Source: an uncultured Anaerolineaceae bacterium (lineage in GTDB: Bacteria; Chloroflexota; Anaerolineae; Anaerolineales; Anaerolineaceae). From it: a stretch of 32,162 nt of DNA. The stretch spans positions 1 to 32,162 of the forward strand of contig CAZDAW010000036.1 of the NCBI GenBank assembly GCA_964503685.1. Reading direction: 5' to 3'. The notes below the pieces were generated by a model. It searched no databases. It was not told the origin of the DNA and saw only the letters and a program-made list of their open reading frames with translations. Position 1 is the first letter of the stretch, and each line of letters starts with the position of its first letter. Positions 8,242 through 30,872 of this stretch are shown piece after piece. Made by a program: the position numbers and the translations under genes.

Positions 8242-8326
8242 TGGATCAATATCTCGTTTGGATGATATGCAACTGACTGGAACCTGCGTGTATCTTTTGT
8301 CAACATTGCTGGCCTGGGTTAACTGT

Positions 8327-9727: not shown

Positions 9728-9757
9728 ACCTCTCTTCTTTTAGAGAGGTATTTTGTT
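9728..9757 (+). terminator. Candidate terminator of the metH riboswitch expression platform
   Basis: ACCTCTC-TTCTTTTA-GAGAGGT, 7-bp stem, followed by ATTTTGTT. Lies between the aptamer and the proposed metH start. Confidence 0.5.
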
Positions 9758-9779
9758 AATAAGGGAATTTATTGTTGGC

Positions 9780-12700
9780 ATGACAAACAACTATACCAAC
9801 TCCAAATTTTTAGAAGCTGTTCGCAAACGAGTGCTGGTTTTTGATGGGGCAATGGGAACGAACCTGCAAAAGATGAACTTGAGAACTGAGCATTTTGGCG
9901 GTGAGCGTTATTTGGGGTGTAATGATCATCTGGTTATTTCATACCCTGAAGCGGTTGAAGCTGTCCATCGCTCATTTCTCGATGTTGGCGCCGACGTCAT
10001 TGAGACCTGTACATTCCGGGCAAACCGCATCACATTGGGGGAATACGGGCTGCAAGAGAGGACGCTTGAGATCAACCAGGCAGCTGCTCAACTTGGCCGC
10101 CGGCTGGTTGATCAGTACAGCGCGCCTGATCACCCGCGTTACCTCGCTGGTTCGATTGGCCCAAGCGGAAAATTGCCCTCGGCGGACGATCCTGAACTTT
10201 CCAATATCAGTTTTGATGAACTGGCAGATGTCTTTCGCGAGCAGGCGAGCGGCTTGCTTCGCGGCGGTGTGGATCTTATCGTGATCGAAACTTCACAGGA
10301 TTTGCTGGAGGTCAAAGCTGCAATTATTGGCGTGCAATCTGCTTTTGAGGAAACGGGTATCGTTGTTCCTATTCAAGCGCAAGTGACGCTGGATACAACC
10401 GGGCGCATGTTACTGGGCACCGATATCGCTGCGGCGCTGGCAACCCTCGAAGGATTGCCCATCGAAGTCATTGGATTGAACTGCTCGACCGGTCCGGAGC
10501 ACATGCGTGAACCCATTCGCTATTTGGGTGAACAGGCCTGCCTGCCTGTTTCCTGCATTCCCAATGCAGGTTTACCCCTCAATATTGACGGTCAGGCAGT
10601 TTATCCGCTTGAGCCGGAGCCATTTGCATCTGAATTGGTCGAATTTGTTGAAAAGTATAATATCAATATTGTTGGTGGGTGCTGCGGTACGACGCCGGCG
10701 CACATCAAGTTACTGGTTGAGAAGCTCCATAACCGACCCAGCCCGGCGCGACCCGGCTCCAGCGTGCAGCGGTTATCATCTGCCATGCAAGCCATGCCGA
10801 TGACGCAGGAGCCTAAACCTTTATTGATCGGGGAAAGGTTGAATTCACAGGGTAGCCGCCAGTTCAAACGCCTCTTGCTGGCGGAAGACTATGACGCGAT
10901 TTTAGAGATTGCCCGTCAGCAGGTAGCCGGCGGCGCGCATACATTGGATATCTGTGTTGCAGTCACTGAGCGCGGCGACGAAGGCGAACTGATGCGACGG
11001 GTTGTGAAGAAAGTTGCTTCGGGTGTAGAGGTGCCTCTGGTGATCGATACGACCGAACCTGATGTCATGGAAATTGCGCTCAAAACCACGCCGGGGCGCT
11101 GCCTGATCAACTCTACGAACCTGGAAGGCGGGCGGACAAAGGCAGACCGTGTTTTGAAATTGGCGAAGATGCATAACGCCGCGGTGATTTTGCTGACTAT
11201 TGATGAACAGGGCATGGCAAAGACAGCCGATCGGAAAGTTGAGATTGCCCGCCGTTTGTACCACATTGCCGTAGATGAATTTGGTTTACGACCTGGCGAC
11301 CTGGTTTTTGATGCGCTCACTTTCACTCTGGCAACCGGCGAAGCGGAATTCAGCCGCTCGGCGCTCGAAACCTTTGAGGGTATTCGCCGGATAAAGCAGG
11401 AATTCCCAGGCGTTTTTACCTCTTTGGGCGTCAGTAATTCATCGTTTGGCCTTAGCCCGGCGGCCCGTCCGGTTTTAAACAGCGTCATGCTCTATCATGC
11501 TGTGCAGGCCGGATTGGATATGGCCATCGTCAACCCGGCGCAGATCATGCCTTATGCTGAAATTCCTGCCGAAGAACGCCAGCTTGCTGAAGATCTGATT
11601 TTCTGCCGCCATCCAAACGCTTTACAGCGCCTGATCGAACATTTTGAGAAAACAGGCAGCAGTCGAGAAGCGGCGGAAACTGTCGCCGATCCCACTGAAG
11701 GGATGACGCCTGAACAGCGCCTGCAATGGTGTATTCTCCACCGTCACAAAGACGGCGTGGAGAACAGCATCGATGAAATCCTGGCGCGTTCGCCCGCGGC
11801 AGAGAAATCCGTGAATGCGGTAAATATTCTGAACAACGTCTTGTTGCCGGCCATGAAAGATGTCGGCGATAAATTCGGAGCAGGCGAATTGATTTTGCCC
11901 TTCGTTCTGCAATCTGCTGAAGTGATGAAAAAATGCGTCTCTTACCTGGAACAGTTTTTGGAGAAGAAAGAGGGCATCAGTAAAGGATTGATTGTTTTGG
12001 CAACCGTTTACGGCGATGTGCACGACATCGGTAAGAATCTGGTCAAGACGATTCTCTCGAATAACGGCTATACGGTCATTGATCTGGGCAAACAGGTCCC
12101 GGCAGATGCAATCATCCAGAAAGCAGTCGAAGTTAAGGCCAACGCCATTGGCTTGAGCGCCCTGCTGGTAAGCACCAGCAAACAGATGCCGCTGATTGTC
12201 AATGAGTTGCAGCGGCGCGGATTGGAATTTCCGGTGCTGATCGGCGGCGCGGCCATTAACCAACGTTTTGGGCGACGGATTTTACTGACCGATAATGACC
12301 AGTATTACGAGCCGGGCGTCTTCTATTGTAAGGATGCCTTCGAAGGCCTGGCTACGATGGACAGCCTGTCGATCCCCGCCAAACGGGCTGAATTGCTCAG
12401 GCAAATCCAGCAAGAGGCCAGCATCGAACTCAACCGTCCTGTCGTTGCCGCCGGCGGGGAAACGGCCCGGCGAGAATCGATGATCCCGCCGGCTTCCTCG
12501 ATCCCTGTACCGTCGGCTTGGGGGGCGCGGGTTGTCAGGCAGATGCCGCTTCCACTGGTATTTGATTGTCTGGCGAAAAACGAGCTCTTTCGCTTATCCT
12601 GGGGAGCGAAAAATGCTCACGGTGAAGCATGGGAGAAATTGAAAGCAGAGTTCGAAGCGCGACTTTCTCGGATGGAGCAGGATGCTCAAAAAGAAGGGTG

Positions 12701-13295
12701 GTTGCGACCGCAGGGCGTGTATGGTTATTACCCGGCGCAATCTGCAGGCGAAGAATTAGTCGTTTATGACCCTGCCACCATTGACAGAAACTCGCCCGTT
12801 GAGATGATGCGCTTTTCCTTCCCTCGTCAGGTTTCCACGGAGAACATCTGTCTGGCCGATTATTTTGCCCCGGTCGAGAGCGGCAGAATGGACGTGGTTG
12901 CCTTTCAGGTCGTTACCGTCGGCGAACAGGCTACCGAGCGTTTTGATCGGTTGCAGGCCGCCGGCGACTACACCGAGGCTTATTTCACCCACGGTCTGGC
13001 AGTTCAAACTGCCGAGGCCGCGGCAGAATATTTGCATCGTCACATTCGCCGCGAGTTGGGGCTGCCTGCTAACCAGGGCAAACGTTATTCGTGGGGATAT
13101 CCGGCGATTCCTGAACTGACGGATCATGCCAAAGTCTTTCAGTTGCTTCCCGCCGAAAAAGAACTGGGTATGAGCCTGACATCGGCCTTCCAACTGGTGC
13201 CAGAGCAATCGACCGCGGCTATTATCATCCACCACCCCAAGGCTAAATATTTCAATGTCGGCGAGAGCCGCGTCGAACAAATTATGAAAGGTTGA
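9780..13295 (+). CDS. metH: Cobalamin-dependent methionine synthase (full four-module MetH)
   Basis: Modules in order: Hcy-binding (VLVFDGAMGTNLQ.., GLNCSTGP, GGCCGTTP), pterin-binding (LLIGERLNSQGSR..), B12-binding with the DxHxxG motif (GDVHDIGKNLV) and a C-terminal AdoMet/reactivation domain (..YPAIPELTDHAKVFQLL..). Start set to the ATG at 9780 (M10 of the track ORF) because the track start overlaps the terminator hairpin. Confidence 0.9.
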   Translation: MTNNYTNSKFLEAVRKRVLVFDGAMGTNLQKMNLRTEHFGGERYLGCNDHLVISYPEAVEAVHRSFLDVGADVIETCTFRANRITLGEYGLQERTLEINQAAAQLGRRLVDQYSAPDHPRYLAGSIGPSGKLPSADDPELSNISFDELADVFREQASGLLRGGVDLIVIETSQDLLEVKAAIIGVQSAFEETGIVVPIQAQVTLDTTGRMLLGTDIAAALATLEGLPIEVIGLNCSTGPEHMREPIRYLGEQACLPVSCIPNAGLPLNIDGQAVYPLEPEPFASELVEFVEKYNINIVGGCCGTTPAHIKLLVEKLHNRPSPARPGSSVQRLSSAMQAMPMTQEPKPLLIGERLNSQGSRQFKRLLLAEDYDAILEIARQQVAGGAHTLDICVAVTERGDEGELMRRVVKKVASGVEVPLVIDTTEPDVMEIALKTTPGRCLINSTNLEGGRTKADRVLKLAKMHNAAVILLTIDEQGMAKTADRKVEIARRLYHIAVDEFGLRPGDLVFDALTFTLATGEAEFSRSALETFEGIRRIKQEFPGVFTSLGVSNSSFGLSPAARPVLNSVMLYHAVQAGLDMAIVNPAQIMPYAEIPAEERQLAEDLIFCRHPNALQRLIEHFEKTGSSREAAETVADPTEGMTPEQRLQWCILHRHKDGVENSIDEILARSPAAEKSVNAVNILNNVLLPAMKDVGDKFGAGELILPFVLQSAEVMKKCVSYLEQFLEKKEGISKGLIVLATVYGDVHDIGKNLVKTILSNNGYTVIDLGKQVPADAIIQKAVEVKANAIGLSALLVSTSKQMPLIVNELQRRGLEFPVLIGGAAINQRFGRRILLTDNDQYYEPGVFYCKDAFEGLATMDSLSIPAKRAELLRQIQQEASIELNRPVVAAGGETARRESMIPPASSIPVPSAWGARVVRQMPLPLVFDCLAKNELFRLSWGAKNAHGEAWEKLKAEFEARLSRMEQDAQKEGWLRPQGVYGYYPAQSAGEELVVYDPATIDRNSPVEMMRFSFPRQVSTENICLADYFAPVESGRMDVVAFQVVTVGEQATERFDRLQAAGDYTEAYFTHGLAVQTAEAAAEYLHRHIRRELGLPANQGKRYSWGYPAIPELTDHAKVFQLLPAEKELGMSLTSAFQLVPEQSTAAIIIHHPKAKYFNVGESRVEQIMKG

Positions 13296-13296
13296 A

Positions 13297-15201
13297 ATGC
13301 AAGCCGCTGCTGACACAAAAAAGGATTTCCTTGCCGCTTTAAAAAATAATCGTCCGTTGGTAGCCGATGGGGCTATGGGGACGATGCTGCATAGCCGCGG
13401 GATCGGCATCAACGAGTGTTTCGACGAGCTTAATCTCACCCATCCTGCCCTGGTAGCCGAAATTCACCGCGACTACATCAACGCCGGGGCGCAAATCATT
13501 CAAACCAATACGTTCGGCGCCAACCGTTTCAAACTCGAAAAACATGGCCTGGAAGATAAACTGGTCGAGATTAACACGGCCGGCGTTGATCTGGCGCGCC
13601 GCTCTGTTCTCGCTTCCTTCAAGGAGGTTTGGATTGCCGGGGATGTTGGCCCGCTCGGTATCCATCTGTCGCCCTTCGGTAAAGTGCAGCCGGAACAGGC
13701 CCGGCAGGTTTTTGCCGAGCAGATTAACGCCCTGTGCAAGGCCGGCGTTGACCTGATTGCCATCGAGACGATCAGCGATACCCTGGAGGCCTGCGAGGCG
13801 GTTCGGGCAGCTCGCCAGGTATGCAGCCTGCCGGTCATGGCGTCGATGACCTTCACCCGCGACGATCGCACGATCCTGGGAGACGAGCCCGCAAAAGTTG
13901 CTCGCTTGCTCAAAGAAAGTGGGGTGGACGTTATCGGCGTCAATTGTTCGGGGGGGCCGGCTCAGATCCTGCGAATTCTAAAGAAAATGCGCCAGGCGTT
14001 TCCTGACGCTTTTTATCTGGTCAAACCCAATGCCGGCTGGCCAGAACAAATTGCCGGGCGCATCATGTACCCGGCCGCCCCCGAATACTTTGGCGATTAT
14101 GCGTTGGCATTCTGGCAGGCCGGCGCGAAGATCATAGGTGGTTGCTGCGGCACGACGCCTCAACATATTGCGGCAATCCGGCAGATGGTCGAATCGACTC
14201 GACCGGAACAGGTCGTCAGCGTTCAAGTTATTCCACAACCCGAAACATCCGAGACTCTTCTGGCCGCTGATCAACCCACTCAACTTGCCCAAAAGCTTTC
14301 TGCCGGCGAGTTTGTTATAGCAGTTGAGATGGACCCGCCGCGCGGACTTTCGATGCACAAATTACTGGCGGGCGCCAGCCTTTTGGCAGAGGTCGGCGTC
14401 GATGTAATCGACGTAGCTGACAGCCCGATGGCGCGCATGCGCATGAGTCCCTGGGCGGTTTGCAACCTGGTGCAACGTCAGGTGGGCGTCGAAACCGTGC
14501 TGCATTTTCCCACCCGCGGGCGTAATCTGTTGCGTGTGCAGGGCGATCTTTTGGCTGCCCATGCTCTGGGGGTGAGGAATATTTTTGTCGTCATGGGCGA
14601 CCCGACCGCCATCGGCGATTACCCGGAAGCGATGGATAATTATGACCTTGTTCCCTCCGGTTTGATTAAATTGATCAAACAGGGATTCAATGCCGGTGTG
14701 GATCATGCCGGATCGAATATTGGGCAGCCGACTTCCTTCTTCGTTGGCTGCGCCCTCAATTTAGACACCCCTGATTATGCCCAGGAAGTTAAAAATCTAC
14801 AACGAAAGCTCAAGGCTGGGGCAGATTTTGCCCTGACTCAGCCAATCTTTAACCCAAAAATTTTTGACAACTTCGTCAATCGGTACGAGTCAGATTTCGG
14901 TCCCCTTCCCATTCCGATTCTGGTAGGGATTTTGCCGTTATATAATTCACGCCATGCTGCCTTTTTGCATCATGAAGTGCCGGGCATTACGATACCAGAG
15001 ACCACGCGCCAGCGAATCGATCGGGCGGGTGAGAACAGCGCTCGTGAAGGCAGCAGAATTGCGATAGAATTGGCCCAACAGGTCAGATCTCACGCCGGCG
15101 GCATTTATCTGATGCCGGCCTTCAGCCGGTACGATATCGCGGCTGAAATCGTTGAAGCTGTAAAGCAGCCATTGGAGGTATCTGATGCTTCTCGTCATTG
15201 A
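13297..15201 (+). CDS. Bifunctional homocysteine S-methyltransferase / 5,10-methylenetetrahydrofolate reductase (YitJ-like)
   Basis: N-terminal ~300 aa are an Hcy S-methyltransferase domain (LVADGAMGTMLH.., GVNCSGGP, GGCCGTTP). The C-terminal ~300 aa are MetF-like MTHFR (..FVIAVEMDPPRG.., ..HFPTRGRNLL..). Starts 1 nt after the metH stop, so same operon. Architecture as B. subtilis yitJ, an S-box regulon member. Confidence 0.85.
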   Translation: MQAAADTKKDFLAALKNNRPLVADGAMGTMLHSRGIGINECFDELNLTHPALVAEIHRDYINAGAQIIQTNTFGANRFKLEKHGLEDKLVEINTAGVDLARRSVLASFKEVWIAGDVGPLGIHLSPFGKVQPEQARQVFAEQINALCKAGVDLIAIETISDTLEACEAVRAARQVCSLPVMASMTFTRDDRTILGDEPAKVARLLKESGVDVIGVNCSGGPAQILRILKKMRQAFPDAFYLVKPNAGWPEQIAGRIMYPAAPEYFGDYALAFWQAGAKIIGGCCGTTPQHIAAIRQMVESTRPEQVVSVQVIPQPETSETLLAADQPTQLAQKLSAGEFVIAVEMDPPRGLSMHKLLAGASLLAEVGVDVIDVADSPMARMRMSPWAVCNLVQRQVGVETVLHFPTRGRNLLRVQGDLLAAHALGVRNIFVVMGDPTAIGDYPEAMDNYDLVPSGLIKLIKQGFNAGVDHAGSNIGQPTSFFVGCALNLDTPDYAQEVKNLQRKLKAGADFALTQPIFNPKIFDNFVNRYESDFGPLPIPILVGILPLYNSRHAAFLHHEVPGITIPETTRQRIDRAGENSAREGSRIAIELAQQVRSHAGGIYLMPAFSRYDIAAEIVEAVKQPLEVSDASRH

Positions 15202-19087: not shown

Positions 19088-21253
19088 TCAGGGCGTTTTG
19101 GGAAGAGGACGCCAGGCAGCGCCATAATCATTGTATTCATCGTTGGTTATGTTTTTCAGGCCTGTTCCCGATGTCATCATAATATAAATATCACGCACAT
19201 TGTCTTTGATGTGTTCATATGCCAGCCAGTCGCCGTCGGGAGAGTAATCGATGCCGTAAACAGGCGCCAGGCCTTCTTTGATCGCCTTGAAATCTTTGCC
19301 GACTGCATTAACTTTTTTTGAACCGATCTGCGGCATAGGGTCGCTGATGCTAAACATGATCGTTTCCTCTTTTGGCGACCAGGAAGGCATGAAGAAATGC
19401 GCCGTATCTCTGATCAAAGGACGTCGTTCTCCGCCCATGAGATCCATCGTGAAAACGTTGGGCGAACCCGTTTGCATTGTCGTAAATGCGAGTCGCTTGC
19501 CGTCAGGCGCCCATTCTGGATAAAAATCATCGCAGGTCAGCACTCGCGAAACCAGAGAGGTCTCTTTGCTGTTGATGTCATATAAGAAAATCCGGCTGAA
19601 ATCGATATCACGCACTGAGGTGAATGCGATTGTCGCGCCGTCTGGCGACCAGGCGGGGTCTGAATCACCTCCTGTCGATGAGAACAGAGGCCGGAGATTG
19701 CTTCCGTCGTAATTGATGACGAATAAAGCCGAATGGCTAAAAACGTTCTTGTGTTTGTACACTGCATTACGCTCGAAACCCTTTGGCGCAATACTTTCGC
19801 ACGGCGAACTGAAGACGATCTGGCTGCCGTCAGGCGACCAATCGGGCTGGCAGGCGCCATCCTGAACATCGGTGATCTGGCGTAATTGTTTACCGTCGGT
19901 GTTAATCACCCAGATTTGCGGTTTGCCTGAACGATCTGAAGCAAATGCAATTTCCCCGGTTCCGCCGCCCAGGCCAGGAGAAACGCCCGCGGTCGGGGTC
20001 TGCGTGGGCGCTTCTGTCGGGCCGGCTGTTGGGGAAATTTCTTCTGGTGGGGTAATAGTCATAATAGGTTCTGTTGTATCTGGCATGGGCGTGGACGTGA
20101 TATTTACTATGACATTCCCGGCATTTGCCTGGACGAGCGGCGTGGGCTCAGATGTTTCGAAAACGATGAACCCGGCATAATAGGCGACCCCAATCACGGC
20201 TGCCACGCCGATGATTCCCAGGATTAATATCCCCAGACCGCCCAATCCGAACAAGAGAGCTGTTTTGGCTTTAGGTCGTGTTTGACTGGCTGGTTGTGAT
20301 TTGGGCTGCGAAGCAGGTCGCGGCGTTGGCGTCCGACCTTCTAACCCTGCGCCTACCCCAATTACGGGGTTTGTCGGAATAGTTTGTGGGGGCGGCGGGG
20401 TGATAGTGATTGCGCTGTCATCAGCCGTCTTACGCCGGATGGTGGTATTGACTGCCAGGAGCGCCTGTTTGAATTCTGCCGCAGTCTGAAAGCGACTATT
20501 CTGCTCAATTGCCATTGCTTTCTCTATCACGTCTGCCAGGCCTTCTGATACTTCAGCGCCTGTTGCCCGCAAAGGAGTCAGTTCGGCTGTTTGCATGAGG
20601 CGCGATAAGCCATCTTCAGGCACCGCGCCGGATATTGCCGCATATAATGTTGCCCCCAATGAATAGATGTCTGATCTCTGATCAGTACCCTTGCCGTATT
20701 GTTCGGGCGGCGCAAAGCCAGGTGTATAAGCCTGCGCGCCGATGGTGGTTGCCTGGTTCGATTGAAATACTTTTGCCAGGCCAAAATCAACCAGGAATAC
20801 TTGACCGGTTGGAGTAATTTTGATATTACCGGGTTTGATATCCCGATGCAGGATTGGGGATGGAAGACTGTGCAGGTAATTTAGAGCGTCGCATATTGCT
20901 ATCCCGATCAATATCACGTCGCTTTCAGGCAGTTTTCCAAGGCGGGTCATACGCTGGCGTAAATCTTCACCGGCGATATAATCCATCACTAAATATTGCC
21001 CCTGGCCTTCGATAACAAAATGATCGGTGACACGCGGCAAATTGGAATGCCGCAGGCTGGCAAGGATGTTTGCTTCTTTATGAAACTGTCTGGAATACTC
21101 TTCGGTGGGATTCAGATTTTCTTTTACTGCTACTTCGACGCCTAGACTTTCATCTACCGCATGATAGATCGCGCCCATTCCGCCCTTGCCCAGAAGGCCA
21201 GCAATCCGGTAACGCGAATGCAATAAGGTACCCGCATCAAGCGTCATAATCAC
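19088..21253 (-). CDS. Ser/Thr protein kinase - TM - PD40/TolB-like beta-propeller receptor, paralog 1
   Basis: Hanks kinase domain (GKGGMGAIY, VAVK, HRDIKPGNI, DFGLAK, PE motif). P/T/Q-rich linker, one TM (LLFGLGGLGILILGIIGVAAVIGVAYYAGFIVF). Extracytoplasmic repeats of the PD40 type (DWSPDGSQIVFSS, AWSPDGATIAFTS, EWAPDGKRLAFTT, DYSPDGDWLAY). Confidence 0.85.
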   Translation of the reverse strand: MIMTLDAGTLLHSRYRIAGLLGKGGMGAIYHAVDESLGVEVAVKENLNPTEEYSRQFHKEANILASLRHSNLPRVTDHFVIEGQGQYLVMDYIAGEDLRQRMTRLGKLPESDVILIGIAICDALNYLHSLPSPILHRDIKPGNIKITPTGQVFLVDFGLAKVFQSNQATTIGAQAYTPGFAPPEQYGKGTDQRSDIYSLGATLYAAISGAVPEDGLSRLMQTAELTPLRATGAEVSEGLADVIEKAMAIEQNSRFQTAAEFKQALLAVNTTIRRKTADDSAITITPPPPQTIPTNPVIGVGAGLEGRTPTPRPASQPKSQPASQTRPKAKTALLFGLGGLGILILGIIGVAAVIGVAYYAGFIVFETSEPTPLVQANAGNVIVNITSTPMPDTTEPIMTITPPEEISPTAGPTEAPTQTPTAGVSPGLGGGTGEIAFASDRSGKPQIWVINTDGKQLRQITDVQDGACQPDWSPDGSQIVFSSPCESIAPKGFERNAVYKHKNVFSHSALFVINYDGSNLRPLFSSTGGDSDPAWSPDGATIAFTSVRDIDFSRIFLYDINSKETSLVSRVLTCDDFYPEWAPDGKRLAFTTMQTGSPNVFTMDLMGGERRPLIRDTAHFFMPSWSPKEETIMFSISDPMPQIGSKKVNAVGKDFKAIKEGLAPVYGIDYSPDGDWLAYEHIKDNVRDIYIMMTSGTGLKNITNDEYNDYGAAWRPLPKTP

Positions 21254-21352: not shown

Positions 21353-23455
21353 TTATGGACGCCAGGCTGGGCTGCTATCTGAACTGGGGTCGGTCGTGAG
21401 CCGCCGGATATTTGATCCGGTGGGCGTCATAACGTAAATATCGTGATTTCGGCCATCCGGCCAGCTTTCATAAGCCAGCCAGAATCCATCTGGCGAGAAG
21501 CTCACAAGCGCTACGGGCCCAAAATCTGATTTTGGACTTGCCGGTATCCGGTTTTCTTTATGGCTGAAGCGGTCTTCGTAGCGGATACTGGCTAAACGAG
21601 AAAATTTACCTTCCAGGCTCTGAACCACAAAGAAAATTGCCTGTCCATCGGGCGACCATACCGGGGTACTATTTTTAACATTTCCGCTTTGTGAAAGCAT
21701 CAACTCATTGTCTCCATTATCAGTCATGATCCAGACCTGGTAGTTGCCTTTCTTCCTTACAAACGCCAGTAGCGTCCCGGTTGGAGACCAGGCTGGGTAT
21801 CGCTCCGAGTAATCGTTATCAGACACATTTGTAGTTGTACGGTCAATAAGATTATAGATGTAAATTTGGGTGTGATTATCCCGTAAAGATGTAAAGGCAA
21901 TGCGGTTGCCGTCCGGCGACCAGGAAGGATCAAAGTCGCCGCCTGGTACAATGGGCAACGGCGTCAACCCCGAACCGTCATAGTTGATAATGTATAGGCT
22001 GGCGCCATTGTACTCATTCTCGTCTCCCCGGCAGGGAGAAACGAACACGAGTTGCATTCCATCCGGCGACCAGGCTGGCTGACAGGCGCCATCCGGTGTG
22101 TTTGTAATTTGGCGCTGGTTTGTACCATCGGCTCTCATAACGAAAATCTGGGGGGTGCCTGTGCGATTTGAGACGAAAGCAATTTCACCGACGCCGCCGC
22201 CCATCGGCGTTGCTGTCGGCGCCAGTGGTGTGGGCGTCTGGATAATTGTTTCTGGCGCAGCGGAGGTTTCATTGGCGGCTGTTGATAGCGGCGTCTGATG
22301 TACGGGGGTTGATAATGCTATTTCCGGGGTCACTCCCGTTTCAGCCATTGATACGAGCGGAGTCGGTGTGCTAAACACATTAAATATAGTGGCCCGGATA
22401 TTCTGAGTAAAATCTGGTAAAAAGTAATAGACAAGTCCTGCCGCGATCAGACCCGTAAAAACCATCGCTGTTTGCCAGATACGCCTGCGTTGTCTTTGCT
22501 TTGCAAGGCGACTCTTGGATATTGGCCTGACGATCTCTTTATCTGGGATATCTACATCGAGCGAGGCGTCATTAAAAGGAGATACGGGTTCTTGTTTTGT
22601 ATATGGCGCAGGAGCAATGGTGATATCTTCCATAATATGCCGGCTGCTATTACTGGCGTTTATCAAGGCGTATTTAAATTCAAGCGCTGATTGGTAACGT
22701 TCGTCAGCAGTTAAAGCCAGTCCTTTTTCAATTGTAACGGCAAGGCGGCGAGATATCTTGGGGTTGATCTTACGCAATGGAGTCAATTCGGCGTTGCCTG
22801 TTGCTCGCGCCAGGCTATCTTCAGGTATCACACCCGTCAGGGCAACATAGAGTGTTGCAGCAAGCGAATAGATGTCCGAGCGGGAATCTGTTCGCGCGGT
22901 TCCATATTGCTCAGGTGGGGAATATCCTGGCGTCATCGCTCTCGCGCCGGTCGTTGTTGTTTGAGATCCTGACATCACCTTCACCAGTCCAAAATCTACC
23001 AGCACAATCTGTCCGTCTGGGGTGATTTTGACGTTGCCAGGTTTTACGTCCCGGTGAACGATTGGAGATGAACGGGTATGTAAATAATTTAAACCTTCAC
23101 AGATCGCAATACCGATTCGAATGACATCTTCTTCAGGGAGTGTACCAACACGCTCCATTCGTTCCCGTAGATCTTCTCCGGCAATATAATCCATTACCAG
23201 GTATTGCCCCTGACCAGGAACGACAAAATAATCAATCACCCGCGGCAGGTTGGTAAAACGCAAGGTTGCCAGTACGGTTGCCTCACGGCGAAATTGTCGG
23301 GCGAATTCATCTGACAGGAACAGATTCTCTTTGACGGCGACATCGATTTCGAGGTTATCATCAATGGCGCGATAAACCGCGCCCATGCCTCCTTGTCCCA
23401 GGACATCGACGATTCGATACCGGTTATTGAGAATTGTCCCGTTCTCAAGCGTCAT
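21353..23455 (-). CDS. Ser/Thr protein kinase - TM - PD40/TolB-like beta-propeller receptor, paralog 2
   Basis: Same architecture: HRDVKPGNV, DFGLVK; TM MVFTGLIAAGLVYYF; PD40 repeats AWSPDGMQLVFVS, SWSPDGNRIAFTS, AWSPTGTLLAFV, VWSPDGQAIFFV, SFSPDGFWLAYES. Confidence 0.85.
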   Translation of the reverse strand: MTLENGTILNNRYRIVDVLGQGGMGAVYRAIDDNLEIDVAVKENLFLSDEFARQFRREATVLATLRFTNLPRVIDYFVVPGQGQYLVMDYIAGEDLRERMERVGTLPEEDVIRIGIAICEGLNYLHTRSSPIVHRDVKPGNVKITPDGQIVLVDFGLVKVMSGSQTTTTGARAMTPGYSPPEQYGTARTDSRSDIYSLAATLYVALTGVIPEDSLARATGNAELTPLRKINPKISRRLAVTIEKGLALTADERYQSALEFKYALINASNSSRHIMEDITIAPAPYTKQEPVSPFNDASLDVDIPDKEIVRPISKSRLAKQRQRRRIWQTAMVFTGLIAAGLVYYFLPDFTQNIRATIFNVFSTPTPLVSMAETGVTPEIALSTPVHQTPLSTAANETSAAPETIIQTPTPLAPTATPMGGGVGEIAFVSNRTGTPQIFVMRADGTNQRQITNTPDGACQPAWSPDGMQLVFVSPCRGDENEYNGASLYIINYDGSGLTPLPIVPGGDFDPSWSPDGNRIAFTSLRDNHTQIYIYNLIDRTTTNVSDNDYSERYPAWSPTGTLLAFVRKKGNYQVWIMTDNGDNELMLSQSGNVKNSTPVWSPDGQAIFFVVQSLEGKFSRLASIRYEDRFSHKENRIPASPKSDFGPVALVSFSPDGFWLAYESWPDGRNHDIYVMTPTGSNIRRLTTDPSSDSSPAWRP

Positions 23456-23689
23456 ATCAAATTGATTCCAATACTAAGATCGATTCTAACCCATGTCGCG
23501 TGTTTTGAAAGTAAATTACATCCAAAAAAAGATAGAATACCGGATTACCAGCTAATTTAATAAATTACTCTTGCATTATATCAAAACAATTAACCTTGAG
23601 GTATTGCAAATTGGCCGATGTTATGGATCAATTTTTTAAAATCAAGGCATGCTATAATTTCTGTAACACGCGCTTGCCGGGAAACCTTT

Positions 23690-24556
23690 ATGTATCTGGA
23701 TATTCATACGACTGTGCGAACCGCTTTTTTTTTGTCGTTAGCTGGCATCGTCATTTGTTTGATTGTCGGTGTTCGCTCGATACGCGGTGCACGTTATCTG
23801 CGATATTTCAAGATGCGCCGCGAGCAGGCGCTGTATGGCTGGCGGCTTATCCTGACTTCGCTCTTCCTGTGCGCCGTCGCTGTTCTTCTTAATTCCTATG
23901 CGGAGCCGCTCATTTATAAAGCTTTTCCGCCAACGGCAACGATTACGTTGACTCCTACCACTACATTGACGCCCACCATCACGCTGACGCCTACAGTAAC
24001 CCTGACGCCCACCATCACGCTGACGCCGGCTGTCAGCGATACACCAACTGCCACAGTCACACCTTCAATGCCGATGGCCATCGAAGCCAGCTTCAGCAGT
24101 ACAGTAACCCCAAATCCTGAGGCGATCTTCAGTCCTCTGCAATTTGCGCTCAGCCTGGATAGCTCTTATCAGGCGCAAAACGTGCAGGAGGTTTTCACGA
24201 TTCCTTTTAATCATATTTATGCTGTCTTTAGTTACGATAAAATGGTCGATGGCGCGCAGTGGTCAGCGATCTGGTACAGACAGGGCAAAATGGTTTATTT
24301 CGAGTCAAAGCCGTGGGATGGAGGAACAGGCGGTTACGGTTTTGCGGATTGGAGCCCCAAACCCGAAGATTTATACCCCGGGGAATATGAAGTTCAGATC
24401 TTTGTCGGGATGGATTGGAAAATAAGCGGGTTTTTCACCGTTGAGGGGAATCCACCGCAAATTTTGCCCACTCAAACTTTGACTCCAACGCCGGCTCAAA
24501 CTGCCGGAGGAACTCTGACTCCTCAACCGACTGCTGCGAAGAATTCACCCGAATAG
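23690..24556 (+). CDS. Hypothetical membrane protein with a (T-x-T-L-T-P)x5 linker and an uncharacterised C-terminal domain
   Basis: Start set to the ATG at 23690 (M25 of the track ORF), ~30 nt downstream of a TGcTATAAT extended -10 at ~23650-23658. Two N-terminal TM helices; C-terminal ~150 aa domain of unknown family; P/T-rich tail. Confidence 0.55.
   Translation: MYLDIHTTVRTAFFLSLAGIVICLIVGVRSIRGARYLRYFKMRREQALYGWRLILTSLFLCAVAVLLNSYAEPLIYKAFPPTATITLTPTTTLTPTITLTPTVTLTPTITLTPAVSDTPTATVTPSMPMAIEASFSSTVTPNPEAIFSPLQFALSLDSSYQAQNVQEVFTIPFNHIYAVFSYDKMVDGAQWSAIWYRQGKMVYFESKPWDGGTGGYGFADWSPKPEDLYPGEYEVQIFVGMDWKISGFFTVEGNPPQILPTQTLTPTPAQTAGGTLTPQPTAAKNSPE
23936..24028 (+). repeat. Five tandem 18-nt repeats encoding T(I/T/V)TLTP
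   Basis: Units acgattacgttgactcct / accactacattgacgccc / accatcacgctgacgcct / acagtaaccctgacgccc / accatcacgctgacgccg. Coordinates approximate. Confidence 0.7.
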
Positions 24557-24586: not shown

Positions 24587-25753
24587 TTATCCTTCTATTG
24601 GTTTAAAAACAGCCATCACGACTCCCCAGATGGAAAATGATGTATCGCCGGCCTCAAACCGGCGTTCCTTGATATTCTCATCGCTGCTATGTGGCTTGAG
24701 AATGTGGGTGTTGCCCTCATACAGGTATTCTTTCAACAAGGCTTGTGAAACATCTTCGTCCTGAATTTCTGCCACAACGATGTCTCCATTCTTTACATTA
24801 CTCAGGTCGCACCGCCGAACGAGAACGCAGTCGTTATTGTTGATTCCAGTGAATCGGCCCAATTTATATTGATCCATGCTGACGCCATTGACTCGCAGCA
24901 CAGCCACTTCATCGCGCGCGGTGTTGATCAGGTTATCATCTTTACGGATACTCACAATCATGTGAGGAATTTCATTAATTACCACCTGACTGACCTGCAC
25001 ATAATCCAGCGGAACGGACTGGTCTCCAAAATACCTGGGAATGCCGGCTGATACCTTTTCGACCACGGGGTACAATTGCAACAGGTCTTCCCACAGAGCG
25101 AATAATGGCATGATGATATTCTGGCCTGTTTCACCGGTAGAACTTGCCTGATCGTCGTGCGGCCGAATGATTTCCGGTTCCTCTGATTCGTTTTTAGAAG
25201 GACTTGTCTCGATAGAAATGCTTTGAAATACCTGTTCATATTGGCGCGTCATTTCGCTTCGACAGGTTTCGTACCATTCCCGTTTTTCGGGTGAAGAGCA
25301 ATTGGCTTCTTGGGCGGTGATTGATTCGATACAGCGCCGCCACAGAACGGCTGCATCGTCTTGTTTGCCGTCGAGTTGCCAGAGAATGCACCCCATCATC
25401 CATTTGGCGATTGTGCTTTCATATTGATTGGGAAAAAATTTTATTACCGCTTCCCCTAATATTTTCCTGGCTTCCTCCATGCGCCCAATCCCATAGGCAG
25501 TTAACCCGCATTCCAGCAGGGTATATGCCTGTTCCATGCGGTCAGTGAACGTGAGACTGGTTTTGATCAGCCGTTTGATTAAAGCCATTTCGCGTTTGAA
25601 ATTGCTAATTCCATGTTTCCGATTATCATCAATGGCGTCTTGAATTTTGGTGAGAAGCTGTCGTGTTTCTGGCTGTGGGTAGCAATCGGCGTTGAAATGG
25701 TTTAACCATTCGTAGGCCAATTTCATCAAGTGAGTAAAATCGATTGCGTCCAT
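24587..25753 (-). CDS. TPR-like helical N-terminal domain fused to an S24 (LexA/UmuD/CI-type) serine autopeptidase domain
   Basis: C-terminal ~150 aa align residue by residue with the LexA C-terminal domain. Ala-Gly cleavage site in VEKVS-A236-G237-IPRY (LexA VGRVA-A-G-EPL). Ser nucleophile in LRVNGVS292M (LexA LRVSGMSM). General-base Lys in SQALLK341EY (LexA VTVKRL). No HTH in the N-terminus; instead ~220 aa of helical TPR-like repeats (..ECGLTAYGIGRMEEARKILGEAVIKF.., ..AKWMMGCILWQLDGKQDDAAVLWRRCIESI..). Start is 2 nt after the stop of the upstream SPFH gene. Confidence 0.7.
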   Translation of the reverse strand: MDAIDFTHLMKLAYEWLNHFNADCYPQPETRQLLTKIQDAIDDNRKHGISNFKREMALIKRLIKTSLTFTDRMEQAYTLLECGLTAYGIGRMEEARKILGEAVIKFFPNQYESTIAKWMMGCILWQLDGKQDDAAVLWRRCIESITAQEANCSSPEKREWYETCRSEMTRQYEQVFQSISIETSPSKNESEEPEIIRPHDDQASSTGETGQNIIMPLFALWEDLLQLYPVVEKVSAGIPRYFGDQSVPLDYVQVSQVVINEIPHMIVSIRKDDNLINTARDEVAVLRVNGVSMDQYKLGRFTGINNNDCVLVRRCDLSNVKNGDIVVAEIQDEDVSQALLKEYLYEGNTHILKPHSSDENIKERRFEAGDTSFSIWGVVMAVFKPIEG

Positions 25754-25755
25754 TT

Positions 25756-27282
25756 TTATCTCACTTCAGATCCATTTTTATCTTCCGGTTGAGCGTTATA
25801 CAAATCTTGATCGGCGCCGGTCTGGTTTTTCTCGGACATGACGTCCAATATTTGGGCCGTACGCAGCAGGATCAGATTGCGCAAGTTTTGACGATGGTCG
25901 CCTGTCAATCCAATCTCATCCAATCCTTCAACGATATTGGTCAATAAGTCTGCCTGGGCTTCTGCTCGCCCAAGTTCCTGATAGGCCAGGCGCTTGGCTT
26001 CTCCGGTTGCCCGTGTGATTGAAGCGTTGCCCATCCACTTTGCCTGCCAGGAGTGGATGCGTTCCAGGTCTATTTTGCTTTCGGGTATCTCAAATCGCCC
26101 GATATCAATCCAGACCAGTTCTGTTCCGACGTTGTTAAATGTTGATATGACCGGGCCAGAACGGAATTCATCCTTGATTTCCCGGCGGGGGTCTTTGCCG
26201 CCGGGGCCAGGCGCCGTCAGATCATCAATTCCATGTCTGTTGATATAGCGGGTGATCGTCGTTTTTACATTCTGCTGAATGGTTGACTGCCAGGATACCA
26301 GCCCTTCTTTATCTACATTGCGGTTGAAGGCCAGGTCGCGCAGCGCTTTTTCCGAAAATGGATAGGGATCTGACATGGATCGGTATCCCTGTTGCTCGGC
26401 TGGCGGCCTTAAGCGCAACCGGTAACGGAAACGGATATCGAGAACTTTGATCATAATCCCGTCTTTTGTCGTGGCCACCATGTTTTCAATGGAACCAGCC
26501 TGATCGCTCAAGCTGACAATCTCTCGAATCCGTTCAAAACGCAAAACAGGGTAGCGCCCTTCGTGGATAACTGGCAGATTGCTCCCTGCTTTTTCGACCA
26601 GAACGGCATAACCGGGCTCCACAACCAGATAACCGGGGCCGCCAAATATATCCAGGGGGTTCATCTCGTCTTCGACGAGAATCTTTTCTCCGCCTTTTAT
26701 TCTCAGGATGGGATAGCCCAGGCCAAACAGGCTGCTAAACAGATAGGATGCATTTTTCCGAATACCATCCAGATTATAAATATCCTGCAGGTTGTGGGCA
26801 GCTATTAACCAGACGATCACCAGCGCGGCAAAAGGCGCAATGGCATAGCGCAGGGTCTTCAGGGTGAGAAAGAATGCCATCGATTCGAGTAGAAAATCGG
26901 GGAATGTTTCCAGATTGGGGTTGTTTATTCGCCATTCAGCTACCGTAGCGGTTGTATCAACATCTTCAAAAAGCGCTCCACCCATAACGATCATGATAAA
27001 GAAAACGATGAGGGTTAATAGAAGGCGCAGGTTCGCCCAGCCAAAATCACCTGAGACCAATTTGCCAAATTGGGTGCTTAATCGGCGGTCAAAACCCTGC
27101 CGGCGATCGTCGGTTTGCCGGCGGTCAATACCGCTGCGCCGTTCGTAATTCCGCCGGTCTTTTCGTCCGGGAGGAAGTTCATTGCGCTGACGCCGATCGA
27201 TGCCGGAACGTCGTTCGACGCCCTGGCGCCGATCAAGATTTTGCCGGCGATCTTTTCCTCTTGGGCGGTACAAATGAAACAT
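25756..27282 (-). CDS. SPFH/band-7 (stomatin/HflK-like) membrane protein with an N-terminal Arg-rich DRRQ-repeat tail
   Basis: Residues 1-70 are repeats of (D/E)RR(Q/S): KDRRQNLDRRQGVERRSGIDRRQ...KDRRNYERRSGIDRRQTDDRRQGFDRR. Two hydrophobic helices follow. SPFH core: ..GGPGYLVVEPGYAVLVEKAG..ENMVATTKDGIMIKVLDIRFRYRL..LVWIDIGRFEIP... Ala/Glu-rich coiled-coil tail ..WQAKWMGNASITRATGEAKRLAYQELGRAEAQADLL... AGGA SD 6 nt upstream; 12 nt after the upstream gene's stop. Confidence 0.65.
   Translation of the reverse strand: MFHLYRPRGKDRRQNLDRRQGVERRSGIDRRQRNELPPGRKDRRNYERRSGIDRRQTDDRRQGFDRRLSTQFGKLVSGDFGWANLRLLLTLIVFFIMIVMGGALFEDVDTTATVAEWRINNPNLETFPDFLLESMAFFLTLKTLRYAIAPFAALVIVWLIAAHNLQDIYNLDGIRKNASYLFSSLFGLGYPILRIKGGEKILVEDEMNPLDIFGGPGYLVVEPGYAVLVEKAGSNLPVIHEGRYPVLRFERIREIVSLSDQAGSIENMVATTKDGIMIKVLDIRFRYRLRLRPPAEQQGYRSMSDPYPFSEKALRDLAFNRNVDKEGLVSWQSTIQQNVKTTITRYINRHGIDDLTAPGPGGKDPRREIKDEFRSGPVISTFNNVGTELVWIDIGRFEIPESKIDLERIHSWQAKWMGNASITRATGEAKRLAYQELGRAEAQADLLTNIVEGLDEIGLTGDHRQNLRNLILLRTAQILDVMSEKNQTGADQDLYNAQPEDKNGSEVR
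27100..27282 (-). repeat. Imperfect tandem nucleotide repeats encoding the DRRQ / ERRSGIDRRQ peptide repeats
   Basis: Plus strand shows repeated ccggcgRtc / gccgatcga / cgccggtc units. Protein-level repeat ERRSGIDRRQ occurs twice exactly plus degenerate DRRQ/DRRN copies. Confidence 0.5.
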
Positions 27283-27294
27283 TTTTTATCCTGT

Positions 27295-28917
27295 TTAGAT
27301 TAATCCCTGCATGTCCTCTTCTGAAGAAGCAGGTGGAGCGACGTCATCTTGCAGCAAGAGCTGGCGTAAAGTGCGTAAAAGATTTATTGTGTCGCGGGGT
27401 ATCATCCGCCGGGTGGCTGGATCTGCTGCGGCGGTCTCCAGGGCCTGAAACACACGCATGGCCATGGCTTCTTGTGAATAGGTCTTCCCTTCCAGTATTT
27501 GCGATAATGTGTACACCATCTCGCGTTGCGCCTGGGCACGCGCTCTGAAGCGGATCCGATTTGCCTGTAATTCACTGTCGGCCATTGTCTCTGAAAATTC
27601 ACGTTCCCATCGCGCGCTCCAGGTGTCCACGCGTTGTTTCTGAATTTCAGGGTTGACCGGTTTCAAATCCAGGAATCCGGCATGGATGATCTTGATTCCG
27701 TGATCACGCAGGAATTTTGAATTACGCAATTGCCGCACAGGAAATATTTGCAGTTTGCTTTCATCCCATACTTGCCCGACTGTAAAAGGTTTTCCAAAGG
27801 GGGGGCGAACATACTGATAGGATAATACACCGTTTGAACGGATAATCTTTCTGAATGAATCCTGGTAATTACCTAACGGAAAGCTTGTCGCATCGGTTGA
27901 GAAGAAGCTGTCGTATTTGACGCGCCCGATTAAATCCCGAAATACTCCGATGGCAAATTCCAGAGGAAATTCTGTCCAACTACGTAGTCTGCCGGTCTGA
28001 TCAAAGGCCTGAGACGAAACGGCTGCAAATACTCGTTCGGGGTCGTAGATCATGTAATCATTTATCCGTTGCCAGGTGGGCGTCTGAGGCGGATCGTTCA
28101 GATCGCGGATGATTTCTGCTTTATCCGCCTCATCAAGGTCATCCGCTGTTAAGCTTTGAATCACTTTACCGCCGTCTTTATCTTGTAAATTGATCACTCG
28201 CAGGCTGGAAACCGATGGGGCTCTTTCGATACAGGTTACATAGAGCACATCGGCTGGCTGGCCAAGGGTGAATAGAGTCAGAAGCACCGATTCTATTTCG
28301 ATCCCATCTGCTGTATAAGCCCGCACATTGGGCTGGACGCGAATCTGTTTACGTAAATCTACAACTCCCTGTATAACTTCATTTCCCCGGCTGAATGCGA
28401 TCCCTGGTCCGCAGGCGCGCATTTGAGAGCCCGGCGCTTTGCCTCTCTTTTTATTGCGTGGGTTTGTCTGGCTTAATACGCCGAATTGCTTTTTAAGCAC
28501 CAGGGCGCTGTTTTGGTCAATTAAAATCACGCCCGAACCGGAACGCTTTTCTTCATCTTCTGAAGCCAGCACACGCCCGTCTTTCACGTGTACGGCCAAG
28601 CCGTGCATGTGTAACATCTGTAAAATCATGCGTTTAACCAGCAAAAACCATTCATTAAAAGTTTTTATTGGCAGGACAAATGGTGATATTAAAAACATCC
28701 CCAATATCAGAAACGGAATGAAACCAATAAAGCAATTGAATGCGGTAATTTCTAATGCACGTAATTTTTGGTCCGGCGTACTGGCTTGCGAGCCGGTCAG
28801 TAAATGCAGGAATTGGTTATTTTCAGGCCAGAAACTATAGCATGAAAAAGACGCCAAAAACAGGGCGATCACAGCCAGCCAGAAGCGTTTTCTCAGATAA
28901 AATGGCTCCGAATCCAT
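27295..28917 (-). CDS. SPFH/band-7 membrane protein (paralog of the downstream gene)
   Basis: Two N-terminal hydrophobic helices (FWLAVIALFLASF..; FIGFIPFLILGMFLISPFVL). SPFH core ..GSGVILIDQNSALVLKKQFG..GPGIAFSRGNEVIQGVVDLRKQIRVQPNVRAYTADGIEIESVLLTLFTLGQP... Later ..HGIKIIHAGFLDLKPVNPEIQKQRVDTWSARWEREF..ANRIRFRARAQAQREM.. Shares the W-x-A-x-W / Ala-Glu-rich tail with the 508-aa paralog. Confidence 0.65.
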   Translation of the reverse strand: MDSEPFYLRKRFWLAVIALFLASFSCYSFWPENNQFLHLLTGSQASTPDQKLRALEITAFNCFIGFIPFLILGMFLISPFVLPIKTFNEWFLLVKRMILQMLHMHGLAVHVKDGRVLASEDEEKRSGSGVILIDQNSALVLKKQFGVLSQTNPRNKKRGKAPGSQMRACGPGIAFSRGNEVIQGVVDLRKQIRVQPNVRAYTADGIEIESVLLTLFTLGQPADVLYVTCIERAPSVSSLRVINLQDKDGGKVIQSLTADDLDEADKAEIIRDLNDPPQTPTWQRINDYMIYDPERVFAAVSSQAFDQTGRLRSWTEFPLEFAIGVFRDLIGRVKYDSFFSTDATSFPLGNYQDSFRKIIRSNGVLSYQYVRPPFGKPFTVGQVWDESKLQIFPVRQLRNSKFLRDHGIKIIHAGFLDLKPVNPEIQKQRVDTWSARWEREFSETMADSELQANRIRFRARAQAQREMVYTLSQILEGKTYSQEAMAMRVFQALETAAADPATRRMIPRDTINLLRTLRQLLLQDDVAPPASSEEDMQGLI

Positions 28918-29054
28918 TGCCGGATTTCAAATCCCTTCCAGGTATCTGGTTTCTCAAAAACAGCCCAACCCGATGTCTGTATTATTTCAACCGGGTAATA
29001 ACCGCATACGATTCAGTATAGACAGGCCTTCAATATTTGTCAAGAAAACTTAAA

Positions 29055-30209: not shown

Positions 30210-30872
30210 TTGAAAGATAAATTAATCGTAGAATTTCACTGTCATACCATTTATTCGGATGGACTGGCAACACCTGAAAAGTTACTGGAAATAAGCAGAC
30301 GAAAAGGGATCGACCGGCTTGTTATCACCGATCATAATACCATTCGGGGCGCCCTGCGTGCCAGGGAGCTTGACCCTGAACGGGTGATCGTCGGAGAAGA
30401 AATTCTCACCACCCAGGGTGAATTCCTGGCCGCCTTTGTTAAAGAGGAAATCCCCAAGCGCCTGACGCCTATGGAAACGATTCGGCGGCTTAAAGATCAG
30501 GGCGCGTTTATCAGCGTTTCGCACCCGTTTGACCGCCTGCGCTGTGGCTGGGAAACGAAGCAGCTTTTGGAAATTCTCCCATACGTGGATGCTATTGAAA
30601 CTTTCAACGCTCGCGCCTATCGCGCCGCTGTCAACCAGCAGGCGCAGGAATTTGCCCGGCAGCATAACCTGGCCGGCACGGCCGGGTCAGATGCTCACGC
30701 CAGTTTTGAGTTGGGCGCAGCGACCATGACCCTCCCTTATTTCACGGACTCTGCCAGTTTGCGGCAGGCGATGGCGCAGGTGGAATACCATACCCGCTAT
30801 TCCGGGTTCTGGGTGCACCTGGTTTCGCGTTTTGGCAACTGGATGAAGAAAATGATGCCCGAACAGGCTTGA
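30210..30872 (+). CDS. PHP-domain metal-dependent phosphoesterase
   Basis: ..VEFHCHTIYSDGLATPEKLLEISRRKGIDRLVITDHNTIRGAL.. (PHP motifs I-II), ..SHPFD.., ..GSDAHA... Starts at a TTG preceded by GGAGA. Confidence 0.8.
   Translation: MKDKLIVEFHCHTIYSDGLATPEKLLEISRRKGIDRLVITDHNTIRGALRARELDPERVIVGEEILTTQGEFLAAFVKEEIPKRLTPMETIRRLKDQGAFISVSHPFDRLRCGWETKQLLEILPYVDAIETFNARAYRAAVNQQAQEFARQHNLAGTAGSDAHASFELGAATMTLPYFTDSASLRQAMAQVEYHTRYSGFWVHLVSRFGNWMKKMMPEQA

Follow-up and report, generated by a model that had tools for sequence, protein, structure and literature searches.

A conserved SPFH gene pair of Anaerolineae and its soluble TPR-like partner, which in some lineages carries a LexA-type S24 domain

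Background

SPFH proteins are universal membrane scaffolds; to our knowledge, their bacterial functions and partners are mostly unknown beyond two arrangements, HflK/HflC with FtsH and stomatin with NfeD. The two-paralog SPFH systems that have been solved (HflK/C, prohibitin 1/2, erlin 1/2 and flotillin 1/2) form alternating hetero-oligomeric membrane rings or cages. In LexA, CI and UmuD the S24 domain mediates dimerisation and is at the same time a latent protease, whose target is its own Ala-Gly bond; this cleavage occurs when the Lys is deprotonated or when a co-protease stabilises the cleavable conformer. The well-studied S24 autopeptidases that we know of all control DNA-related outputs. 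In this work we analyzed a locus in which these two kinds of proteins are encoded side by side. The locus lies in a stretch of 32,162 nucleotides from an uncultured Anaerolineaceae bacterium (contig CAZDAW010000036.1, assembly GCA_964503685.1), hereafter the window, and consists of three genes, here called A, B and C. A and B encode proteins of the SPFH type, and C encodes a protein that joins a TPR-like module, here called M, to a LexA-type S24 domain.

The A/B pair resembles HflK/HflC in that two paralogous SPFH genes are adjacent, and in that both the fold and the long helix of the coiled coil agree; for A and B, too, one would expect a hetero-oligomer at the membrane with a link to protease function, as described for HflK/HflC and FtsH. 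In contrast, HflK and HflC have one N-terminal transmembrane helix and a periplasmic SPFH domain, whereas A and B have two helices and an SPFH domain predicted to be cytoplasmic; moreover, the partner of HflK/HflC is the AAA+ protease FtsH, whereas that of A and B is a soluble TPR-S24 protein. The NCBIfam models for HflK and HflC matched neither A nor B, and no ftsH gene is present in the operon or in the window neighbourhood. In the stomatin-NfeD (STOPP) operons, exemplified by Pyrococcus horikoshii stomatin and by QmcA-YbbJ of Escherichia coli, an SPFH gene is also accompanied by an operon partner, and QmcA is among the structural matches to B. In some SPFH-NfeD subfamilies this partner carries a protease domain with a Ser-Lys dyad (PMC2636767). 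The stomatin-operon protease is ClpP-like, membrane-anchored and accompanied by an OB-fold NfeD domain; in contrast, C is a soluble protein in which a TPR-like adaptor carries an S24 domain of the LexA type, and it has a conserved scissile bond of its own. Pfam detected no NfeD domain in the product of the third gene, and no hydrophobic segment was found in it with a Kyte-Doolittle scan.

With LexA, lambda CI and UmuD, C shares the S24 fold, the Ser-Lys dyad, an Ala-Gly bond in the equivalent position, and the design of a two-domain protein that is split by cleavage, which in the case of C is predicted. Nonetheless, C has neither the DNA-binding domain of LexA and CI nor the polymerase partner of UmuD, and it differs from all three by a TPR-like N-terminal module of 180 residues, a disordered linker of about 40 residues and a membrane scaffold as genomic partner. 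IrvR of Streptococcus mutans, a LexA-like protein with RecA-independent autocleavage (PMC7101444), provides a precedent for non-SOS triggers of S24 cleavage; in contrast to C, it is a DNA-binding transcription regulator with no link to a membrane scaffold. A survey of prokaryotic SPFH operons published in 2009 described only partners of the NfeD type, and none for SPFH11, a subfamily whose two paralogs, SPFH11a and SPFH11b, are always adjacent in one operon and were present in 4 of the 8 Chloroflexi genomes then available (PMC2636767). Compared by description only, SPFH11a/b resembles A/B as an adjacent pair of Chloroflexi paralogs, and differs from it in that SPFH11b is said to lack a coiled coil that both A and B have.

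Given that defining features of each of HflK/C, the SPFH-NfeD operons and LexA proper were looked for and not found, the module is none of these; in its working it can be likened to a hybrid of a LexA-type switch and an SPFH operon with a partner protease. A preliminary description made from the letters of the window had not recognised the arrangement, and a full-text literature search agrees with it, since no paper joining SPFH with S24, LexA-like or Anaerolineae was found in the library searched.

Results

The SPFH pair and its constant partner

Genes A (27295..28917, 540 aa), B (25756..27282, 508 aa) and C (24587..25753, 388 aa) are open reading frames (ORFs) of the minus strand, as are all the features described below for this locus, and they are separated by 12 nt and then by 2 nt, the layout already given in the preliminary description. 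Diverged homologs exist for each of the three products. A word-indexed homolog search with C retrieved two near-identical proteins only; the reading of C as a one-off fusion was overturned by an exhaustive search, which yielded 388 relatives. Architectures were counted in the best 149 cluster representatives (50% identity clusters) of these relatives: one M joined to one S24 domain is found in 98, two M modules without S24 (M-M) in 21, M alone in 11, and two S24 domains in a few.

The conservation of the linkage was analyzed by scanning species-representative genomes with a profile of B, and by sorting the surrounding ORFs with purpose-built hidden Markov models. The 79 loci obtained are mostly labelled as Anaerolineae or as unclassified Chloroflexota, and include those of the cultured Levilinea saccharolytica, Ornatilinea apprima and Anaerolinea thermolimosa, in which the order is A-B-MM; a narrower-alignment scan of metagenomes gave 12 loci. 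A is placed directly upstream of B at every one of the 79 loci whose contig extends upstream. Directly downstream of B there is an M-M gene (~330 aa) at 29 loci, an M-S24 gene (~360-400 aa) at 19, and a gene for M alone (~170-200 aa) at 9. No M gene follows B at the other 22; three of these end before the downstream sequence, and the rest run into housekeeping genes, for example those of a pseudouridine kinase and glycosidase, or RNase Y. In the converse test, using independently sampled loci anchored on M-S24 genes, B was directly upstream in 8 of 10 distinct cases (the L086-90 group, L091, L093, L094, L098, L099, L102, which carries M-M-S24, and L140). The adjacency is thus not a matter of chance; the refuting outcome named in the preliminary description, that the three genes never co-occur in related genomes, is clearly not what was seen. 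The proposed coupling of an SPFH pair to an S24 autopeptidase holds as to the conserved linkage and has to be amended as to the partner: the one that stays constant is M, to which S24 has been added in certain lineages only. An apparently functional LexA-type autoprotease is carried by the partner in about a quarter of the sampled species.

A tree of B built by neighbour joining has two clades: one consists almost purely of M-M loci, and the other, which holds the window, mixes M-S24, M alone and no third gene. When the modules were matched, the M of an M-S24 protein paired with the second M of M-M proteins in 31 of 33 cases, and S24 is one of several C-terminal or N-terminal elaborations of M. 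Two rare forms downstream of B, M-M-S24 (L102 535-2223; P0287, 562 aa) and a partial M followed by M-S24 (L140 5983-7437; P0239), look like intermediates between the M-M and M-S24 architectures. A different local arrangement is seen at another locus, where the gene of a 525-aa P-loop ATPase (ORC/CDC6-like, ATPase_2; L097 464-2041) separates an M-S24 gene from an A-B pair that is more divergent and lies in convergent orientation. In a related subfamily of ~550 aa, a single M is followed by two S24 domains in tandem (L139 5998-7656; P0316 contig); in both contexts seen, its gene is followed by that of an extracytoplasmic function (ECF) sigma factor and by a gene of ~370-390 aa without a recorded Pfam domain.

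B is, and A probably is, a divergent member of the SPFH superfamily

B matches Pfam Band_7 at 30.8 bits, above the gathering threshold of 23.6, over residues 220-402 (26077..26625), and 26 of the 39 members of its family also match this model. In the AlphaFold2 model of B, whose predicted local distance difference test (pLDDT) score is 81.3, this region is formed by alpha/beta elements, and Foldseek retrieved with the model erlin1/2, HflK/C, stomatin, prohibitin, QmcA and flotillin, all with probability 1.0 and E ~1e-9. By Pfam and by the match of its modelled fold, B is a divergent SPFH protein. Its residues 402-488 (25819..26079) are predicted to form two long C-terminal helices (402-457 and 463-488), the coiled-coil region typical of ring-forming SPFH proteins, and the C-terminal region of A aligns there.

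A, for which 115 homologs were found, is predicted to comprise a two-helix membrane hairpin, an SPFH domain with large insertions and a C-terminal helix rich in Ala, Arg and Gln. The sequence of A in the window has no Pfam match of its own, and BLASTP aligned it with B in a single match of 56 residues (E 4e-4); A is recognisable as SPFH at the level of family and profile only, where Band_7 is reached by 9 of 36 members of the A family (best E 3.7e-7), and where hhalign joins the profiles of the A and B families with 99.5% probability (E 3.9e-23, 324 columns). Given this profile alignment and the Band_7 matches of the A family, A and B appear to be paralogs of old origin, the SPFH domain having acquired large insertions in A. 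The preliminary description of A and B as two paralogous SPFH/band-7 proteins, to be checked with Pfam Band_7, is thus borne out directly for B and indirectly, by way of the family profile, for A. Searches of the PDB sequences with the profiles of both families found nothing. An N-terminal membrane anchor and a coiled-coil helix, features of the SPFH superfamily, are present in A as well as in B. The C-terminal tails of A and B are variable, and no tail motif that goes with the type of third gene, and that might be an M-binding peptide, was found in them.

The hydrophobic segments were located by a Kyte-Doolittle scan, which gave two near the N-terminus of each protein, in accord with the two helices noticed before: residues 12-30 (28828..28884) and 64-82 (28672..28728) in A, and residues 87-105 (26968..27024) and 139-157 (26812..26868) in B. 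In both proteins a loop of 33 residues that is poor in Lys and Arg links the two segments; in B this loop (residues 106-138) has 1 Lys/Arg versus 7 Asp/Glu, and the 86 residues of the N-terminus contain 26 Lys/Arg. From this charge bias (positive-inside rule) the N-termini and the SPFH and coiled-coil parts are predicted to be cytoplasmic and the loop to be outside. Independent support for this topology comes from A variants of 1,500-1,975 aa found elsewhere, which have the same two helices and, in that loop, an LVIVD beta-propeller of ~1,000 residues. Long proteins of the A family with the LVIVD insert (825-1,975 aa; L024 2374-6921, L052 1049-6976, L044, L054, L073 8145-10622) occur alongside M, M-S24 or no third gene, and the position of the propeller suggests that this scaffold can bear, outside the cell, a domain for sensing or binding. 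The N-terminus of B also includes an Arg-rich tract (residues 11-67, 27082..27252) that is predicted to be disordered and cytoplasmic (pLDDT ~50); it contains nine [DE]RR motifs with approximately hexapeptide spacing, e.g. ERRSGIDRRQ twice, and is confined to the lineage of the window (P0003, P0004) among 120 B homologs.

C joins a TPR-like module to a LexA-type S24 domain

Residues 1-180 of C (25214..25753) form module M, an eight-helix TPR-like solenoid in the AlphaFold2 model of C (pLDDT 87.3), in which W16, C82, W118, G121, W125 and W138 are conserved. It is followed by a disordered, acidic linker that contains Ser and Pro (residues 181-222, 25088..25213; pLDDT <55), and by an S24 domain of the LexA/UmuD/CI type (residues 223-388, 24590..25087). 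The helical-hairpin solenoid fold was found in the N-terminal module and the S24 beta-fold in the C-terminal domain, whose closest structural matches are the C-terminal domains of LexA; a PDB sequence search with the S24 region of C alone found nothing. Pfam TPR models gave no match to C at E up to 1, one relative of C has a faint TPR_12 mark, and the profile of the M-S24 family matches consensus TPR designs at E 2.8e-6, with no single stretch passing alone. The preliminary description had spoken of a TPR-like sensor domain; the TPR-like helical fold is supported, the role of sensor is not, and "adaptor" is the more economical reading.

The predicted scissile bond lies between Ala236 and Gly237 (codons GCC GGC, 25043..25048), the predicted nucleophile is Ser292, in a G-x-S-M motif (codon AGC, 24878..24880), and the predicted general base is Lys341 (codon AAA, 24731..24733). 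In an alignment of C with 80 M-S24 representatives, the catalytic Ser and the Met next to it are present in 81 of 81 sequences and the Lys in 80, while the scissile residues are Ala in 79/81 and Gly in 77/81. The M-S24 family profile matches LexA at 4.4e-21 and UmuD at 7e-9, and its IPAG motif aligns to the cleavage site of LexA, IRAGE. The conservation of both the scissile and the catalytic residues argues for proteolysis at the internal Ala-Gly bond as the function under selection. The ratio of nonsynonymous to synonymous substitutions of C versus an 88%-identical relative is 0.12 overall (0.10 in the N-terminal module, 0.19 in the linker and 0.11 in S24), which denotes purifying selection. 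The complete LexA-like self-cleavage module without a DNA-binding domain that had been noticed from the sequence was therefore recovered here: the Ala-Gly bond and the Ser/Lys dyad are conserved, and no DNA-binding domain, either helix-turn-helix or winged helix, was found in C, its N-terminal 180 residues being a TPR-like solenoid.

Surroundings of the locus

A promoter-like site, TTGACA-17-TATACT, is located ~98 nt upstream of the start of A (29015..29043, minus strand). It agrees with the consensus at 11 of 12 positions and has the top score in the region; since the total of the promoter scan at the locus is not above shuffle expectation, the site is to be read as a consensus match only. 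The scan for intrinsic terminators gave no convincing candidate after C, with counts at the shuffle level.

The window is ordinary chromosome with a housekeeping context; it carries the genes of HtpG, MetK, MetH, MTHFR, CoaX, CoaBC, a PHP phosphoesterase and a pseudouridine synthase. The operon is flanked by a gene for an LPG_synthase_TM protein and by one for a Pro/Thr-repeat protein. The latter gene, downstream and convergent (23618-24556, plus strand), encodes 312 aa with N-terminal hydrophobic segments and a tandem Thr/Pro repeat of TLTPT[IV] units; its product has no Pfam match, and the gene is kept beside the operon in a 99%-identical contig (L005). The PHP/PHP_C phosphoesterase gene of the window (30210-30872, plus strand) is found past the LPG_synthase_TM gene, on the opposite flank of the operon, and in 9 related loci (e.g. 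L023 9268-9918) a gene of this kind is directly downstream of the M-S24 gene, a sign that a syntenic block has been rearranged locally. Two tandem paralogous Ser/Thr kinases with C-terminal PD40 (TolB-like) beta-propellers (19088-21253 and 21353-23455, minus strand) are encoded a short way downstream of the operon. Farther away, a full-length cobalamin-dependent MetH (9753-13295, plus strand) is immediately followed by a fusion of a homocysteine S-methyltransferase domain with MTHFR (13297-15201, plus strand), and two tandem ORFs of the Beta-lactamase2 family (7174-8412 and 8327-9391, minus strand) share, as called, ~86 nt; probably the wrong start codon has been assigned to the downstream ORF.

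At related loci the neighbours include argG/argH, an ABC1 kinase, a pseudouridine kinase and glycosidase, and RNase Y. Loci of the M-M clade have, after the operon, a convergent gene for a double-AAA+ ATPase (~900 aa; AAA and AAA_lid_6, twice), an arrangement seen at 28 loci in all (e.g. L001 10003-12792, L004 9933-12638 and L069 9743-12403, minus strand); a 465-aa protein without Pfam match and a radical-SAM (Fer4_12) protein are also encoded there, often with an ABC1 kinase upstream. These genes were considered as further components of the module, but since neither the window nor the M-S24 clade has them, they are regarded as probable clade synteny.

Discussion

The gene order and coupling, the homology, folds, predicted topology and residue conservation, the purifying selection and the conserved linkage were computed here. 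The explanation that we favour for them, tentatively and with somewhat less than an even chance of being right as a whole, is that A-B-C is a chromosomal, vertically inherited three-gene module of Anaerolineae in which A and B form a scaffold, M is an adaptor docked on it, and the S24 domain is a self-cleavage switch. A and B would each be anchored by their two-helix hairpin, with the N-terminus and the SPFH/coiled-coil part in the cytoplasm, and would assemble in alternation, as a hetero-oligomeric ring or cage at the cytoplasmic side of the membrane, by analogy with HflK/C, prohibitin 1/2, erlin 1/2 and flotillin 1/2. The translationally coupled third gene would provide M as a soluble TPR-like adaptor that docks on the A/B assembly; TPR-like folds typically bind peptides or helices, and because of this and of the tight gene coupling, M is best read as an A/B adaptor. 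In the lineage of the window, M is joined by the flexible linker to the S24 domain. By analogy with LexA, CI and UmuD this domain would dimerise, and the dimer would display two M modules, the number that an M-M protein of the sister clade has in cis. On a signal, S24 would cut its own Ala236-Gly237 bond by means of Ser292 and Lys341, and this cleavage would irreversibly separate M and the linker from the S24 dimer, changing the valency and possibly the stability of the adaptor; the result would be a one-shot post-translational switch without a DNA-binding output. It is conceivable, if rather doubtful, that the M-S24 proteins are the first LexA-type self-cleaving switches that operate without DNA or RecA, reading the state of a cytoplasm-facing SPFH cage (e.g. 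membrane or envelope stress relayed by the A/B hairpin loop, in whose place some lineages have a huge extracellular LVIVD propeller), and responding by an irreversible autoproteolysis that remodels the cage-adaptor complex.

Several observations weigh against this explanation. Ring formation, the binding of M to A/B, S24 dimerisation, self-cleavage, its trigger and the physiological output are all steps that we infer, and the predicted template modelling score of 0.55 for the model of C leaves the relative placement of its two domains undefined. Two M-S24 genes (L095 and L100) are away from any A/B pair, and the M-S24-S24 subfamily has no SPFH neighbours and adjoins ECF sigma genes, so M-S24 may have roles that are independent of SPFH. 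Conversely, the loci with M only (9) or with no third gene (22) imply that S24 is dispensable for the SPFH pair, as M in cis possibly is too. Two points weaken the argument from bivalency: there are forms with M only, and S24 is added C-terminally but the extra M of M-M proteins is N-terminal.

The main rival explanation, which we consider unlikely, is that S24 is chiefly a trans-acting protease that M delivers to the SPFH assembly, where it would clip the A/B tails or the clients of the scaffold; cleavage at the internal Ala-Gly would in that case serve maturation or the relief of autoinhibition, like the conversion of UmuD to UmuD'. LexA and UmuD are able to cleave intermolecularly, which speaks for this reading, but we know of no S24 enzyme with a dedicated foreign substrate. 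So does the invariant Ser/Lys dyad of the M-S24 family, but the Ala-Gly bond within C is conserved to the same degree, an indication that the substrate of C is C itself, and neither a conserved Ala-Gly nor a similar site appears in the near-invariant columns of the A and B family alignments, the C-terminal tails of which are not conserved. An SPFH protein with a serine protease as operon partner is nonetheless an established pattern (Hinderhofer 2009, PMC2636767), the analogous case being the NfeD/STOPP Ser-Lys protease that shares an operon with stomatin in Pyrococcus. Another reading differs from the favoured one in the trigger only: C would be an SOS effector responsive to activated RecA (RecA*), by which DNA damage would lead to cleavage and to remodelling of the membrane scaffold. 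The closest structural matches of C being LexA domains, and RecA* being the co-protease for all classical S24 autopeptidases (PMC7101444), this idea has some appeal; we judge it improbable, given that no SOS or DNA-repair genes are present in the window or recurrent beside the related loci, that C would be at the membrane and away from RecA filaments, and that the cleavage of IrvR is a RecA-independent precedent (PMC7101444).

That the three genes serve in phage defence or another conflict, with a cleavage switch arming a membrane effector, now seems highly improbable; a defence module was one of the possibilities raised in the preliminary description. Cleavage-armed switches and membrane effectors are common in defence systems, and one M-S24-S24 gene lies beside a HepT/MNT toxin-antitoxin pair; against these points, none of the three proteins matched a PADLOC model (E up to 1), no match of the B family was found in viral contigs, where the M-S24 profile matches only the S24 part of phage repressor-like genes, the neighbours in the window and at related loci are housekeeping genes, and synteny and the type of third gene track the B tree, as expected under vertical inheritance. 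As for C being an ordinary LexA-type transcriptional repressor with an incidental SPFH neighbourhood, a 99%-identical protein does bear the JGI name "SOS-response transcriptional repressor LexA", but this reading is effectively refuted by the TPR-like solenoid that stands in place of a DNA-binding domain, by the LexA equivalog model TIGR00498, which scores 35.9 bits versus a cutoff of 110.95 and aligns only over model positions 112-201, that is, the C-terminal domain, and by the conserved linkage to A/B.

Conclusions

A conserved and so far unannotated three-component SPFH module with a dedicated soluble TPR-like partner is now defined, which is widespread in Anaerolineae. Database names for these proteins are "hypothetical", "LexA" or "S24 family peptidase", and the recurring misannotation as LexA repressor is hereby corrected. 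The M, M-M, M-S24 and M-M-S24 forms constitute a natural comparative series on what S24 adds to the module. An S24 protein that is linked to a membrane scaffold and has no DNA-binding domain would extend the range of uses known for the LexA-type switch. On the more doubtful reading, in which M-S24 proteins read the state of an SPFH cage and operate without DNA or RecA, A/B/M would represent a new, Anaerolineae-wide class of SPFH machine together with a new signalling use of the S24 fold.

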